From Eledone cirrhosa (taxonomy: Eukaryota), in the NCBI GenBank assembly GCA_964016885.1, contig OZ024754.1, positions 25,172,001 through 25,236,000 of the forward strand: DNA of 64,000 nt. The letters run 5' to 3'. Numbering within the stretch: position 1 is the first letter of the stretch; every line of letters starts with the position of its first letter. Shown here piece after piece: positions 872 through 12,155 of this stretch. The notes under the pieces are model-generated. The model was not told the origin of the DNA. It saw only the letters and a list, made by a program, of their open reading frames with translations, and did no database searches. The translations under genes and the position numbers were made by a program.

Positions 872-3800
872 GTAAGTTTGAATTCATCTTACACTGTTTT
901 ATTTCTCTTTATCTTATCATAGTGCAAGTAGGGAGATAGTTAGGGGACCCAGAAGGACATAAGTCTCCAATGCTATTGGTTCAGCGATAAACCTATCAGA
1001 AAAAGACAGCTACTTCAATAGCTTGTGATGTTTAGCTTGTTGGGTAACGAAACATGGATCTGTTATTGAATTTTTCCAGATAAAATGTCACTGCATGTTG
1101 CATCCGAGATGAGAGGCTTATCACCGCAGAGTGTGAAGATTGTGATACCATCTGGCCTTTTGCTGTTCTCTTGGTCTAACCCCACCGGTTCGAGCTCTGA
1201 TTAGAAGCCAGCAGTGTCCAAGTCATAATGATCTCATTGAGAGCGGGATGGCATGAGGGGCAAACCACACTGAGGTGGAATGACAGATAGTGAAAGCCAA
1301 AAATATCAACAGTTGAACCGAAGTGGCATTTATGTTGTTTGAAGATCTTGATGTCCAGCCCAAGGGAACCAGCCATGTGCAGGCAGACGCTGTCCAGCTG
1401 AGCACAAGTTAACACAAGGGCACAGTTTTTAGTCAGGCACTACATTAGAGTTGGGAGTTGGAGTGGAATCATGTCAGATGCGAAGCTTTTTAGCATTGAA
1501 AAGATTGGACTGGGGTGCAAAGAAATTCCAGATTATTGTATACTGGGAAAACTTTATTGGGTTGCATGATTATTGTAACTTATGTTTAGTATGGAAAAAG
1601 AATGTTATCAGAGGACCTGTATGGTTCGGTAGATGTAAAATATAGCTAGCTTGTTTAGAGAAGCAACATATGCTATAGCTGTAGTGAGAGAATTGTTGGG
1701 TCTAGGTGGATGTAAAATATAACTAGCTTGATCAGAGGATCAAGATATGGCATAGCTGTAGTGAGAGAGTTGCCGGGATGAAGAGATAGGCCATTATATT
1801 AAATGTGGACTGTGATTAGAGGAAATATTCTATCAAGAAATCAAAAATTACCTCTCCTTAATATTTACAGCAATACAGCTCACAAAGAAAGAGTAATAAA
1901 ACAATTTTGGAATTTGAAATAATTTCAGATGATGGAACTTATGAATAAAGCAGCTCAAAATCTGGAAGAAAATTTCTCTTTGTATGCTGACAAATGCAAA
2001 GATATTGAAATGAAAAGGTGAGTATGCACTGATTTTCTTTGTGTTATATATTTAATCAATTTAAACCTCTGTTTAGAGCTGGTAAGCCACAACATACCAG
2101 GAGAGGTATCTATCATGACAGAGAGAGAGAAGGAAAAACGCAGAGAAAAGATGAAAAAAAAGGACACCTATATTTGTTGCAAGAAAAGTAACAGGACAGA
2201 GTGTGCTTTGTGAGCTATATATATATATATTAGTATCAGTGCTCTGAAATAGCGATGTATTTATGTATAGTATATTTGACAATATACTGTATGTTTATCT
2301 AAAAATATTTTGAAATCCATTCACTATGAGTTTTAAAGTTGTGACTATGTCACTTACTTAGTCTCGGCAACAACAAAGGAAAGCAACCAACGGCCGTTTA
2401 TCACTCGGTTATCAACATTGCATACACTTTCGCTTCTGCCGAGATTTATAGAAGCTGGATTCTTATAGAATTCCAGTGATGTTTAAGAGCTGATTAAACA
2501 GAGCAGTTGCCAGTCCAGCAAAAATTAGGAATTAGTTTCAGTGCTCTGAAATGTATGTATAGTATATTTGATAATATACTGTATGTTTATTTAAAAACAT
2601 TTTGAAAACCATTCATCGGTTGCTTCACTTTGTTTTTAAATATACTATACATACATTCATACATACATTTCAGAGCACTGAAACTAATTTTTGCTGGACT
2701 GGCAACTGCTCTCTTTAATCAGTTCTTAAACATCACTGGAATTCTATAAATCTTGGCAGGAGCGAATGGGTATGCAATGTTGATAACCGCTAACGAGCGA
2801 GAAACGGCCGTCTGTTGCTTCCCTTTGTTTTTGCTGAGACTAAGTGACATAGTCACTACTTTAAAAATCATAGCGAATGGTCTTCAAATTTTTTTTAAAA
2901 TAAACATACAGTATACTATACATACATTCATATATATATATATATATATATATATATATATATATATATATATATATACTAGTGTGGAGGATGGACGTTA
3001 AACAATGATGATATGTGTGTGTATAGAATTAAGGTATTCGCTCCAACATAGCTGTATACATATAAGTATGCATATTTTGCTTATCTAATGATATACAGTA
3101 TGTTTATGAATAAACAATTGAAAGCCTTTAGCGATGAATTTTGGAAGTTGATGGTGTAGCATTATCTAGTGAATACCGGCTGAATCAAGAGGGGGAAATT
3201 ACCGATGATCGTTTCTGACTGATGGTTGTCATCAAGGCAGTACTCACCTTATCTCGCTTACTGCTGGAATTCAATATAAGCGAAAACACATAGTTTTGAT
3301 GCCTATGTACATGGGCTGATTAGTCCATTTGCATATGGAGTAAACATACCGTATATCTGAGATGACATTTCTTGGTACCATTGGTGTACATACCTACATG
3401 CATACAAATATATGTATACATGTATATATGTATGTGTGTATCTATTTATTATTTTGTTCTACTTTATATTCAGTGTCTTTTCAAACTACACAGTTGATTT
3501 GATTGCCACTACAGCATTCGGTGTTGAAGTAAATTCTCAAAAGAATCCCGAACATAAGATTATAAGGAGTTTTGAGAGATTTTTTCAAGTCAATTTTATT
3601 GACCCAATTTCTTCGATTCAAGGTAGATGTTCATTAAATTACTTCTGATAAGTGATGTCTTAGAATTAAGTTTGTAACATGACCGCACACACACACACAC
3701 ACACACACACACAGACACAGGCATACACACACATGGCTTCTATTCTCCGTCATGCATGGATGGGCTGTGGTCAGTGTTGTGATCAGTTCAGTCTTTGATG

Positions 3801-6800
3801 TTGTTGGACCAGGAATTTCTTTAGCTGCCTTTTCTTCACCCTCCCTTGGCTCTGAAGAATGGCTTTAGACAAGGAGCCATGGTGAGTTACATGGCTTTTA
3901 GACAGGAGTCATCGTGATATACATGGTAAGAGTCGTTCCTGACTGTCAGTATATTTATTGACTTGTTTGTTTTGTGTTCTGTGTATGGTGTGTCTAGCAG
4001 CTGTCTAAAGCACTTGTGTTTGAATACCTGGACTCCTTGTTCTTTGTCAGCTGTAAGAGCCCAGCTCTCACCCCCATCGAGAAGAGGCCAAGTCTTGTCA
4101 TTATCTCATTTTGATATCTGATGTCCTTGGTCAGAGTGAACCCGAGATACCCAAAGGTGTCCGCATATTCAAGTCTTCCTCCATTCAGCATGATGTTGGT
4201 TGCAATATTCTGATTATTACTATTAATCAGAATCTTGCTCTTTTCTGAGCTGATCTCCAAACCTAGTCTTCTTGAACTCACTCCCCAAATTGTTGCACTC
4301 TACTCTTCTTACTCATGAACAGCCTTCAACTAAGGATCTCAAACTCTTTACAAATGCTATGCTAGCTCTGAAGGCACATCAAAATTCTAAACATTTCTTT
4401 CTCTGCAGAGTGAAACCATTGATTGACAGCTTAACATAGAATAGCAAAATCGGTAGATTGTCAAACTAAATGCATATTAACATTCTAAATTATAATGTAA
4501 TTTATAAAAATCTGAGCATCAAATACTGTTTCAAATCCTCCATCATTTTACGAAGACTATAAATGTATGTATGGTCCCATAATTCCTGATAGTCACAGGG
4601 GCACTGTATTGACATACTGCATTTCTTGGACATTTTTAAACCTGGAAGAGCCCATCCCTCTCCGGGTCTGAGTACAGCAGACTTCTTCCTAAGAAAGATA
4701 GAAAGTGAGAGAGATGAAATTAGAAAGAGATATACAGGAAGAATCGACCCCAGTGCTAGACTGGTACTTCTTTATCGACCTCAAAAGGATGAAAGGCAAA
4801 GTTGACCAAGACCATAAATACTTAAACACAAAAGTTTCTTATTACATTTCTAGAAGAGATAAGTGTATTTATTCACAGAGAAATGCAGTTGATCATAACA
4901 AATTGAACACCTTATTGTTGAATTCCTTCGAATAAATGTTGTTGTATTTCATGTAATCATGGGTAAATCAGATATTCCCATTTTGTTTCAGCAACATTTC
5001 CACCAATTCTAAAAGTTATGAAGTTTTTTGGAATCGAAAGCAACTTTGACAAAACGATGAGAGAAATATCTGAGTTTGCCAGAGCAATTGTAGAAAGTCG
5101 AATAAAAAATAACACGGTATGAAATATCTACTTTATATTTTATATTATCGAGTATTCTAGATTTCATTGTCCTGAAAATAATTTGAGTTTGTGTAAAATG
5201 GTGCTCATAAAGAACAAAGACAATAGGATTTAATGCTAACAAGGTATGTAATAGGCCACTGCCTGAGTATCTAGGGCCCTAGATTTATTGTACAATCACT
5301 TCACATGTATAGATATAGCGTTTAATGCATAGCAAATCTCATGTATTTAAGGGGTTAAAAGTTGTCAGCAGAAGGTCACACAGGAGTCATGACATAAAAG
5401 CAGCCAAGTCTTGTATAGTGTAAGGATTTAAGGGCAGAAACACTTGCATGTGGGAGGTTTCTTCTCTCTGAAGACCTTCTGTTGTCCAGTTTTTCTGAGG
5501 GTTTCTTATTAATATTTGTAAATGTTCTGATTACTTTCAGGTAAGAAAAGATTTCATCCAATTGTTGTTAGAGGCAAAATTTGAAAATATTGATCAAATT
5601 GATGATGATATGAAACATGAGCTGGAGACCCTTGAATATAAAAACTTAAAAGACTGGAGGACAAAAAGAGGTACATTAGTTTTAATAATGGTTTCTGATT
5701 TAGGCACAAGGGCAACAAAATTTTGGTGGGGTGGGGAGAGTCGATTAAATTGACCCCTGTGTATGTACTTTATTATATCAACCTCGTAAGGATGAAAGGC
5801 AGGATTTGAACTCAGATTATAAAGGACCGTAACTGTCACATATCATGTTGTCCGACGCTCTACCAATACTTTCAATCCAATAATACTCATAATATTAGAA
5901 AGTAACACAAAAATGTACATATTACTCATAAATCTAGTGTTCTTTTTTCATCTTTTTTTTCTATTGGTTTCAGTCATTAAACTGTGGCCATACTGCAGCA
6001 TCATATTAAAGGGATTTAGTCGATTATATTAACTCAGTACTTCTTTTTTTCAAGTTTTGATAAGTATTTTGTTGATCCTGTAGGGTACGGAACATACAAA
6101 CAGTAAATGTACACACATTCGCAGACACAGACTCACATGTATACATACATACCTATACATACACATCATCATCATCATTTAACATACGTTTTCCCTTCTA
6201 GCAAGGGTTGGGTGGGTGATCAAAGATCAAGTAAGTAGTTAATCAGAGCAACTGATCAATCAAATGAGCCAAGAGTCATACATACGTTCCAGCATTGTTC
6301 AGTTCACTAGGTGTAATTTCTTGTGACACTAGCAGTAGGGAGGTTGCCATGTCTTTAATACAATAGAACAGTCTTGATGTTTTGTTTGGTTAGATACCCT
6401 TCATATCGCCAACCATTTAAAACAGTGTACTGGGTGTATCAACACCAGAAAGGAGGTTGTCAAGCCCTTAACATACCTAAAGAATCCTCCCAATCCTTTG
6501 TATGGCAATGTTGTATTCTCAGCAGGGGTATATTTCATCATCGTTTCCATTTTTCTAACCTCAGGTCTCACAAATGATGAAATTATTGCCCAGATGGTGT
6601 TGTTTTTGTTTGCTGCACATTTAACAACGTCAAATACCTTGTCGTTCTTTTCTTATATCCTTGCTACTCAACCTGAAATTCAGCAAAAGGTATATGAAGA
6701 AGTGATGGAAGTTGTTGGTGACGTGAGTTACATTAGCTTTTACATTATAATAAATTAGAATACTCCCCCTCCTCCTCATCATCACCTTCTCCCTCTACCT

Positions 6801-11676: not shown

Positions 11677-12155
11677 TGAATGTATATATAGTGTATTTTG
11701 CAATACACTGTATGCTTAATTAAAAGCATTTTGAAGACCATACGCTATTGTTTTAAAGTAGCGACATTGACACTTACTTAAATTTTCGGCAGTCGGGGAG
11801 AGTACTGAGTTTTGACAAGTACCAAGCAAGTACCGAAACAGCGCTGTAAACTTATCTCCCCCCGACTGCCGAAAATTTAAGTAAGCAACAACGTAGCTAC
11901 TTTAAACAATAGCGTATGGTTTTCAAAATGCTTTTAATTAAGCATACAGTGTATTGCAAAATACACTACATATACATTCATATACGTATATATCGCTATT
12001 TCAGAGCACCAATTCTAATTTTCAATTTTTGCTGGGCCGGCGACCGCTCTGTAAAATCAGTTCCTGATTGTTACTGGAATTCAATAAGAATCCAACATAC
12101 ATAATTTTCGGCAGACGGGGAGAGTACTGAGTTTTGACAAGTACCAATTAGTACG
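11673..12155 (+). mobile_element. Retrozyme-like foldback plus partial tandem (period 322 bp)
   Basis: Arms 11673-11800 and 11855-11983 are inverted; agtactgagttttgacaagtacc occurs at 11801 and 12123. Confidence 0.72.
11806..11854 (+). ncRNA. Type I hammerhead ribozyme motif, U3-A8 core variant
   Basis: TGAGTT-TTGACAA-GTAC caagcaa GTAC c-GAAA-CAGCGCTG-TA-AACTTA; stem I extends through ggcagtcggggaga / tctccccccgactgcc. Confidence 0.72.

Follow-up and report, generated by a model that had tools for sequence, protein, structure and literature searches.

Elements in the window

The window, by which the whole 64,000-nucleotide stretch of Eledone cirrhosa DNA analysed here is meant, contains three elements that are 300–320 bp relatives of a 310-bp satellite and carry a type I hammerhead each, a fourth, older relative, a fragment of a Penelope-like element (PLE) that adjoins the (TA)n run at the satellite start, and the satellite array itself, which extends about 80–95 kb past the window (Table 1). 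The relationship of the dispersed elements to the satellite, proposed in the initial annotation, is borne out by alignments to the satellite unit at 69–78% identity (74% over 159 nt at 11909–12066, E 5e-22; 69% at 2453–2610, E 6e-15; 78% at 10508–10588, E 3e-12). Among the periods proposed for the elements (about 302, 310 and 322), 302 in element 1 (2229/2531) and 322 in element 3 (11781/12103) are real, while the element at 10497–10903 has no internal period and 310 is the period of the satellite. The elements are inverted composites, with self-inversion of 76% at 2255–2945 in element 1 and of 84% at 11666–11993 in element 3.

Table 1. Features of the retrozyme family and associated elements in the window
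Feature	Position	Strand	Remarks
Element 1 inverted arm	2229..2615	-	1.3 units, period 302; long tailed 3' end at 2229 beside (TA)n
Element 1 forward arm	2638..2945	+	internal deletions; short 3' end continuing as (TA)n to 2978
Element 1 U3-A8 type I hammerhead	2774..2818	+	palindromic 8-nt helix III; predicted cut after 2812
Fourth, older relative, subfamily 'nb' (majority U3-A8)	2990..3400	-	
Element 2 inverted arm	10496..10633	-	long 3' end and second hairpin 10545-10564
Element 2 forward arm	10640..10903	+	second hairpin deleted; long tail at this end too
Element 2 U3-A8 hammerhead	10767..10813	+	stem II broken, 2/4 pairs; predicted cut after 10807
Element 3 fold-back arm	11666..11780	-	inverted copy of 11880-11993; short 3' end at (TA)n
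Element 3 forward part	11781..12147	+	one full 322-bp unit and start of a second, broken off within the hammerhead
Element 3 U3-A8 hammerhead	11806..11854	+	palindromic 10-nt helix III; A17; predicted cut after 11848
Segmental duplicate of element 1, 98%	19189..19987	+	within second cytochrome P450 gene copy; helix III palindrome broken
3' fragment of young Penelope-like element	25602..26808	+	endonuclease ORF end, 3' UTR, own C3-G8 hammerhead 26709-26775
Young 310-bp retrozyme array, C3-G8 hammerhead	27433..64000	-	96 exact ribozyme copies in the window

As had been read from the sequence beforehand, the three elements have U3-A8 instead of C3-G8, with cores that begin at 2780, 10773 and 11812 on the forward strand; the satellite C3-G8 core lies on the reverse strand, for example at 27882. 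Stems I and III pair as the initial annotation had quoted them, except that the G.U closing stem I at 2774–2818 is drift: the G is absent in 27 of 37 copies of this subfamily, a G.G mismatch occurs in 8 and G.U only in the two window duplicates. Equally, the claim that the hammerhead of element 2 still pairs applies to stems I and III, whereas stem II has only 2 of its 4 pairs. The stem II base at 2774–2818 is a C.A mismatch, the stem II region of element 3 has 2 additional nt, the hammerhead at 2383–2421 in the inverted arm of element 1 lacks G12 and 6 nt of stem II, and the 'nb' copy has a decayed U3-G8 hammerhead of its own at 3198–3241 (reverse strand). The window copies are partly decayed and several are damaged; selection worked on the lineages that transposed and not on these copies.

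A family with two states of the 3–8 pair

The family consists of short non-coding tandem units (300–322 bp) with a type I hammerhead each, present as arrays also for U3-A8 (for example C1:82.39 Mb), and of dispersed mobile copies without LTR structure. Units of about 300 bp have no ORF, hence no reverse transcriptase or GIY-YIG ORF of their own as in an autonomous PLE. At least seven subfamilies differing in age are present, the youngest of which (99.6% to consensus) is C3-G8 and the U3-A8 subfamilies of which stand at 93–96% or lower. Genome-wide, one tight pattern gave 2,548 exact U3-A8 matches versus 8 in the control, in agreement with the expectation that searches of the CUGANGA type, which require C3-G8, would miss copies.

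Covariation was assessed in one set of 14 representatives across subfamilies. Double changes occur in 14 of 15 pairs and 92% of cells are paired, compared to 23–45% in slid controls; the covariation score was reached by 0 of 500 shuffles, a count that is not a probability since the representatives were hand-picked as intact and are mutually related. This covariation across subfamilies, above all shuffles and all slid controls, upholds the initial view that this retrozyme family is old, has diversified and keeps its structure conserved. The hammerhead core columns are invariant among the representatives, with three helices and helix I open, and the 3–8 pair is U-A in 10, C-G in 4 and mixed in none. 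Homology-gathered copies give the same picture, with U3-A8 in 108/113 copies of four subfamilies and C3-G8 in 37/40 of a sister subfamily, the figures for mixed 3/8 states being drawn from 166 copies only. On a tree built without the ribozyme, the state of the pair switches three times in 200/200 bootstrap trees and twice when the distant c5 group is left out. The second hairpin that had been described was located at four sites (2269–2288, 10545–10564, 11690–11709 and, in the satellite, 27735–27754), and RNAalifold recovered it unprompted from 10 full units together with stem II and stem I plus extension, with double changes in 25 of 69 pairs.

Mutations are less frequent in the unpaired core than in base-matched columns in two U3-A8 subfamilies (p 0.017 and 0.0002); the effect is not significant in three of the five subfamilies tested (p 0.095 and 0.080 in two of them), and N7 is free to vary in one subfamily. 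The helix III palindrome varies among lineages both in its sequence and in its length (6–14 nt), and intact U3-A8 copies have self-duplex energies of -11 to -20 kcal/mol. Pair 10.1–11.1 is G-C in e3 and t37, A-U in CG19, C.A in e1 and nb and U.U in the satellite; it is unpaired in 9 of the 14 representatives, and two U3-A8 subfamilies are without it. In four public runs, 6/6 variant sites within the ribozyme of the satellite are compatible with the fold, and the conserved core is free of them; these runs are contigs of unrecorded kind, so that joints going back 310 fit tandem DNA as well as circles. An Rfam scan showed no hammerhead model among the 150 of 197 matches listed, the C3-G8 satellite included, and TA-rich miRNA noise only. 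A-to-I editing as a bridge between the core states was rejected, as the ribozyme strand of four subfamilies shows no surplus of A>G (p 0.2–1.0). The single asymmetry among 24 tests is a preponderance of G>T over C>A in CG19 (p 0.0015).

Insertion anatomy and Penelope-like elements

The initial annotation did not mention the Penelope-type anatomy of the insertions. Among 91 distinct insertions, which are partial, 5'-truncated tandems or inversions in (TA)n, 49 are inverted and 42 direct and 5'-truncated. The inverted ones combine a long with a short end in 36 cases and two long ends in one, never two short ends, while 12 have a non-canonical end; a tail of 26–31 nt at one end and none at the other characterizes 36 of the 37 that can be classified. 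Element 2 of the window, with two long ends, is an exception to this rule. Furthermore, (TA)3 lies within 24 nt of 102/125 canonical 3' ends versus 553/5,400 random 24-mers. A tail at one end, inversion and (TA)n bias have been described for PLEs (PMC8557442), and the insertion anatomy as analysed here, matching this published Penelope signature, points to Penelope retrotransposons as the most likely carrier. None of 90 5' breakpoints is found within 3 nt of the cut site; linear cleaved RNA as the template was discarded because 5' ends do not pile up there, and their absence is equally compatible with an uncut multimer and with a circle.

PLEs of this genome were identified by visual inspection of motifs, by hammerheads on their flanks and by Atlas neighbours that have GIY-YIG/RVT_1 families; Pfam and PDB recognised neither of the two PLE proteins. 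A young PLE with hammerheads flanking an 821-aa ORF shows long and short ends in 4/4 inverted pairs seen, its tail being 85 nt versus 26–31 nt in the retrozyme units, and its ribozyme region folds no better than shuffles (z -0.6). As a partner it was rejected: the insertion anatomy is the same, but homology to the unit was not found. Equally rejected was an 830-aa PLE (L141–L144), in which neither a hammerhead nor homology to the unit was detected, so that in the two PLE families examined no sequence is shared with the retrozyme unit.

Relation to known systems

The retrozyme class and natural U3-A8 cores, the less common state of the pair, are both already published. Metazoan non-LTR retrozymes are known from newt and axolotl satellite 2, coral and mussel and share with the present family non-coding tandem units of 150–450 bp with low GC, arrays of tens to hundreds of units and a type I hammerhead with a short palindromic helix III; the U.U at the stem II base recurs in axolotl HHR_Amex2 (Cervera and de la Pena 2020, PMC7229834). 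In contrast, most dispersed subfamilies sampled here are U3-A8, and the tailed and untailed PLE-type ends have no counterpart in the available part of that source (PMC7229834).

Hammerheads of PLEs, among them the U3-A8 variant in Schistosoma Cercyon, resemble the family in U3-A8 covariation (about 1,300 hits there), in palindromic positions around helix III and in motif pairs on opposite strands 100–700 bp apart (Cervera and de la Pena 2014, PMC4209133). The hammerheads described there are, however, minimal motifs, with helix II long and helix I short, that lie in PLE repeats or derive from them (PMC4209133), whereas canonical helices (6-bp I, 4-bp II, 6-nt loop 2) in stand-alone units are seen here. 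Proposed PLE mobilisation and head-to-tail multicopy insertions are shared with non-autonomous PLE derivatives (Li, Clavereau, Pollet 2026, 10.64898/2026.07.22.740005; non-autonomous Chlamys, PMC8557442), in which the PLE link consists in co-occurrence and pseudo-LTR homology; here it consists in insertion anatomy, without homology to the two PLEs examined. Several natural U3-A8 hammerheads with this compensatory change of the core, reported as active in vitro, are known (Perreault et al. 2011, PMC3088659), compared to thousands here, which belong to a single homologous family whose tree includes both states.

Proposed mechanism and alternative explanations

With considerable confidence, the elements are regarded as non-LTR retrozymes, most likely mobilised by Penelope-like elements. 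Multimeric transcripts would cut themselves, probably as double hammerheads paired via the helix III palindrome, and monomers would be ligated into circles. A PLE endonuclease may nick (TA)n, with reverse transcription beginning at one of two putative fixed sites 130–175 nt downstream of the cut site, just beyond a conserved hairpin and a TA-complementary tract, and continuing across the cut site, which would yield more than one unit. The 3–8 pair would have to remain Watson-Crick, so that lineages are expected to be either C-G or U-A, with two to three switches; inserted copies, including those in the window, would then decay neutrally. A more far-reaching version takes U3-A8 as a functional core that alternates repeatedly with C3-G8, so as to balance cutting and circle stability, and has the PLE reverse transcriptase start on the circle at a signal that consists of a hairpin plus a TA tract and lies at a distance from the ribozyme; it is offered tentatively and considered rather doubtful.

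The units might alternatively be leftover pseudo-LTRs of an unfound autonomous PLE with a U3-A8 hammerhead, instead of elements that replicate independently. The first large numbers of U3-A8 came from Schistosoma PLE repeats (PMC4209133), Xenopus retrozymes are similar to PLE pseudo-LTRs (10.64898/2026.07.22.740005) and the unit ends are PLE-like, yet the units follow each other head to tail without intervening sequence, they are unrelated in sequence to the two PLEs examined and no PLE-type ORF of at least 200 aa lies beside a unit in loci L001–L110 (the ORF scan excludes L149–L208), which makes this origin improbable. A DNA element of the MITE or Helitron kind, with the inverted arms as terminal inverted repeats, would account for the many copies built as inverted repeats within (TA)n; arm lengths and inversion points that differ from copy to copy, asymmetric ends, the direct and 5'-truncated state of 42/91 insertions and the conserved RNA catalytic core have, however, largely refuted this explanation, to which hardly any credence is given.

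On the other hand, the U3-A8 ribozyme could be weak or vestigial, with stems that covary by fold-back or template-switch copying and founder effects and a spread that needs only the 3' priming signal. In fact, the double change in the outer stem of element 3 (11781–11876), a stem outside those the initial annotation had quoted, is a copied product of fold-back, inversions begin at this stem in 5/30 e3 loci (with a query that favoured such loci), a G.G mismatch adjoins the core in 8/37 e1 copies and 8/9 Xenopus retrozyme dimers remained uncleaved in vitro (10.64898/2026.07.22.740005). Fold-back copying can, however, neither conserve an unpaired core nor link positions 3 and 8, which lie 5 nt from each other and form no DNA hairpin, and in vitro activity of U3-A8 has been reported (PMC3088659); a vestigial ribozyme is accordingly held to be quite improbable.

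Implications

Current views are not overturned by these results. Hammerhead surveys that fix C3-G8 undercount retrozymes, with at least 2,548 sites missed here, and the family offers a natural set of compensatory switches within a catalytic core, both states of which occur in closely related contexts. The asymmetric tailed ends in (TA)n connect retrozymes with the Penelope integration mechanism through anatomy, not through co-occurrence, and equally locate the priming signal. Should the more far-reaching version hold, with U3-A8 as a working core and priming on the circle, the young array together with the intact young PLEs of this genome would provide a system for PLE trans-mobilisation from a circular template, a process so far only proposed.

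Core conservation and covariation

The hammerhead core pair between positions 3 and 8, usually C3-G8, is U3-A8 in a large part of the retrozyme family, whose repeat unit spans 300-322 bp. Among copies collected by sequence homology and not by motif, U-A is found in the subfamilies of element 1 (e1, 36 of 37 copies) and element 3 (e3, 37/37), in nb, the subfamily of a relative at 2990-3400 (29/33), and in t37 (6/6), and C-G in the subfamilies CG19 (37/40), c5 (4/4) and c8 (2/3) and in the satellite (6/6). N7 is free to vary in e3 (20 C, 16 U, 1 A). The mutation rate is 1.4-3.0% in core columns versus 4.5-13.5% in base-matched non-CpG columns (p = 0.017 for e1, 0.0002 for nb, 0.095 for e3, 0.080 for t37 and 0.066 for CG19). 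Four public runs display eight variant sites in the satellite, none in the conserved core and six in the ribozyme, namely N7, two in loop 2, 10.1 U.U to A-U, and stem I U.G to U-A and A-U to G.U.

Maintenance of the fold by covariation, as proposed in the initial annotation, is supported by 14 representatives with 92% of cells paired and double changes in 14 of 15 pairs, beyond all 500 shuffles and all slides, figures inflated by the choice by hand and the relatedness of the representatives. The weak pair is 10.1-11.1, unpaired in 9/14. RNAalifold (10 units) recovers stem I, stem II and the second hairpin, located near unit 3' ends, unprompted; double changes occur in only two of the eight pairs of this hairpin, and DNA could form it too. 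A strict helix III palindrome is present in 14/32 e1, 19/31 e3, 6/6 satellite, 3/25 nb and 0/32 CG19 copies, the CG19 majority having a central mismatch. On a 34-row tree built with the ribozyme removed, three switches of pair 3-8 are needed, or two without the distant c5 group, and module exchange between subfamilies could mimic such a switch.

Paired changes can also originate by fold-back copying. The palindrome centre of element 3 is the ribozyme, and the 5' outer stem of its first copy mirrors a private change of the 3' arm, which the second copy does not; this double change is therefore fold-back copying, not selection. The G.U that closes stem I at 2774-2818 is not a product of selection either; it arose via a G.G mismatch seen in 8/37 copies. 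On the other hand, fold-back copying cannot explain the coupling of positions 3 and 8 and the conserved unpaired core.

Copies and setting in the window

Elements 1-3, dispersed relatives of the satellite, are inverted composites that all end in (TA)n. They share blocks with the satellite as previously noted (69-78% match to its unit, E 3e-12 to 5e-22) and possess U3-A8 cores at 2780, 10773 and 11812. The reported periods of about 302 and 322 bp are real, but element 2, assigned 310 bp, is without any period. All three helices are kept at 2774 and 11806, whereas stem II of element 2 retains 2/4 pairs. Ribozyme quality is uneven among these copies: the left arm hammerhead of element 1 has lost G12, helix III is broken at 19763 in the duplicate of element 1, and the relative at 3198-3241 has a U3-G8 core.

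Features of the window (C14:25,172,001-25,236,000) in the 3.0-Gb genome
Feature	Position	Remark
Two cytochrome P450 gene copies	within window	
Tandem cytochrome P450 duplication	1455-9399 and 18589-25601	the two gene copies above; 96-99%
Element 1	2216-2978	duplicate at 19189-19987
Element 2	10497-10903	
Element 3	11673-12155	
Degenerate telomeric-type hexamer array	13264-15353	interstitial; 76% matches
31-bp satellite	to 17934	follows hexamer array
Young Penelope-like element (PLE), 5'-truncated 3' fragment (locus L236)	25602-26808	own hammerhead; directly before retrozyme array
310-bp satellite (retrozyme array)	27433-64000	

Element 1 is also present at P450-like loci (C14:1.196 Mb and C17:1.315 Mb). 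A 72-bp intronic minisatellite at 7306-7806 has 6.9 copies versus 1.9 in the duplicate gene, and a direct repeat of about 230 bp (12170-12400 and 12645-12870, 470 bp apart) cuts off element 3. In the second P450 copy, a stop codon interrupts the exon near 25400; the PLE fragment is inserted in the last intron of this copy, with loss of the last exon, and lies tail-to-tail with the array, a single (TA)n run joining them. The array extends to C14:25,314,500 but no longer occurs at 25,330,001-25,333,000, which puts its length at about 115-130 kb; (TA)n-interrupted higher-order blocks recur in it, which suggests local amplification after insertion.

Family size

Five queries against the own genome gave 1,962, 232, 421, 3,116 and 945 first-look candidates, with 40 scored per query. 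Of 18 stretches of 10 kb placed arbitrarily, two held a member; by a very rough estimate, this would put the number of loci in the tens of thousands. Exact matches to a narrow pattern with 14 nt in the stem II region and a long helix III, including U3-A8 cores on CG19-like stems, number 2,548 for U3-A8 (8 in the reversed control) and 639 for C3-G8 (0), counts that give no ratio for all hammerheads because the satellite's short helix III is left out. Mean identity to the own consensus is 99.6% for the satellite, 96% for t37 and CG19 (the latter from 2 copies), 95% for e3 and 93% for e1, and main subfamilies are 61-85% identical to one another; nb, whose copies show 15.6% mismatch at non-core positions, is older. 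Hammerheads are dense in the genome, flanks harbouring at least six further C3-G8 families (L020, L023, L025, L058, L071, L098, L173), in some of which a 3' hairpin sits at a comparable position. Helitron-like Rep/helicase ORFs lie in an arbitrarily chosen stretch (L094:4899-7930).

Insertion anatomy and Penelope-like elements

From 120 loci picked by ribozyme-spanning queries, removal of 17 duplicates, 11 running off the locus and one without a cluster left 91 insertions, of which 42 are direct. The other 49 are inverted: 36 of them combine a tailed 3' end, longer by 26-31 nt, with an untailed one, one has two tailed and none two untailed ends, and 12 have a non-canonical end; in element 2, outside the 91, both ends are tailed. 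(TA)3 follows 102/125 canonical ends versus 10% of random windows. Unit 3' ends sit 130-175 nt beyond the cut site, at which 0/90 5' breakpoints fall. These inserts resemble PLEs, which the available sections of PMC8557442 and its preprint describe as inserting in tandem and inverted arrangements, with a tail of 30-40 bp on one of the ends and a preference for (TA)n.

A full copy of the PLE whose fragment precedes the array contains an 821-aa ORF flanked by two hammerheads and combines long and short ends in 4/4 inverted pairs, with a tail of 85 nt. No sequence common to the unit and either this PLE or a second young PLE with an 830-aa ORF was found. The latter (L093, L141-L144) is very abundant, with a 6.67-kb tandem unit; no hammerhead was detected in it.

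Proposed mechanism and relation to known retrozymes

The best reading, which we hold to be quite probable on the observed DNA anatomy and covariation, involves multimer transcription, hammerhead cleavage, circles, PLE insertion at (TA)n and array amplification. Transcribed multimers would be cleaved, probably as dimeric hammerheads, and presumably ligated to circles, by analogy with retrozymes as portrayed in the accessible part of PMC7229834. A PLE would nick (TA)n, with priming next to the second hairpin and copying through the cut site; inversion may involve second-strand priming or fold-back, and arrays would grow by local amplification.

In the literature covered, outside which most subscription papers lie, no description was found of cephalopod retrozymes, U3-A8 retrozymes or tailed ends in retrozymes, and neither 'hammerhead' nor 'ribozyme' occurs in an Octopus vulgaris repeat annotation (PMC13282606). 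Retrozymes as a class are established (PMC7229834, in part), and a PLE origin has been put forward (10.64898/2026.07.22.740005, with no mollusc sample in its accessible portion; PMC3884650, available in excerpt, is cited alongside this literature). Natural U3-A8 hammerheads have equally been published (PMC3088659, from partial text), with about 1,300 matches in Schistosoma according to an extract of PMC4209133. The finding is real and well supported, but represents a variant of a class that is already in the literature, as is its core change.
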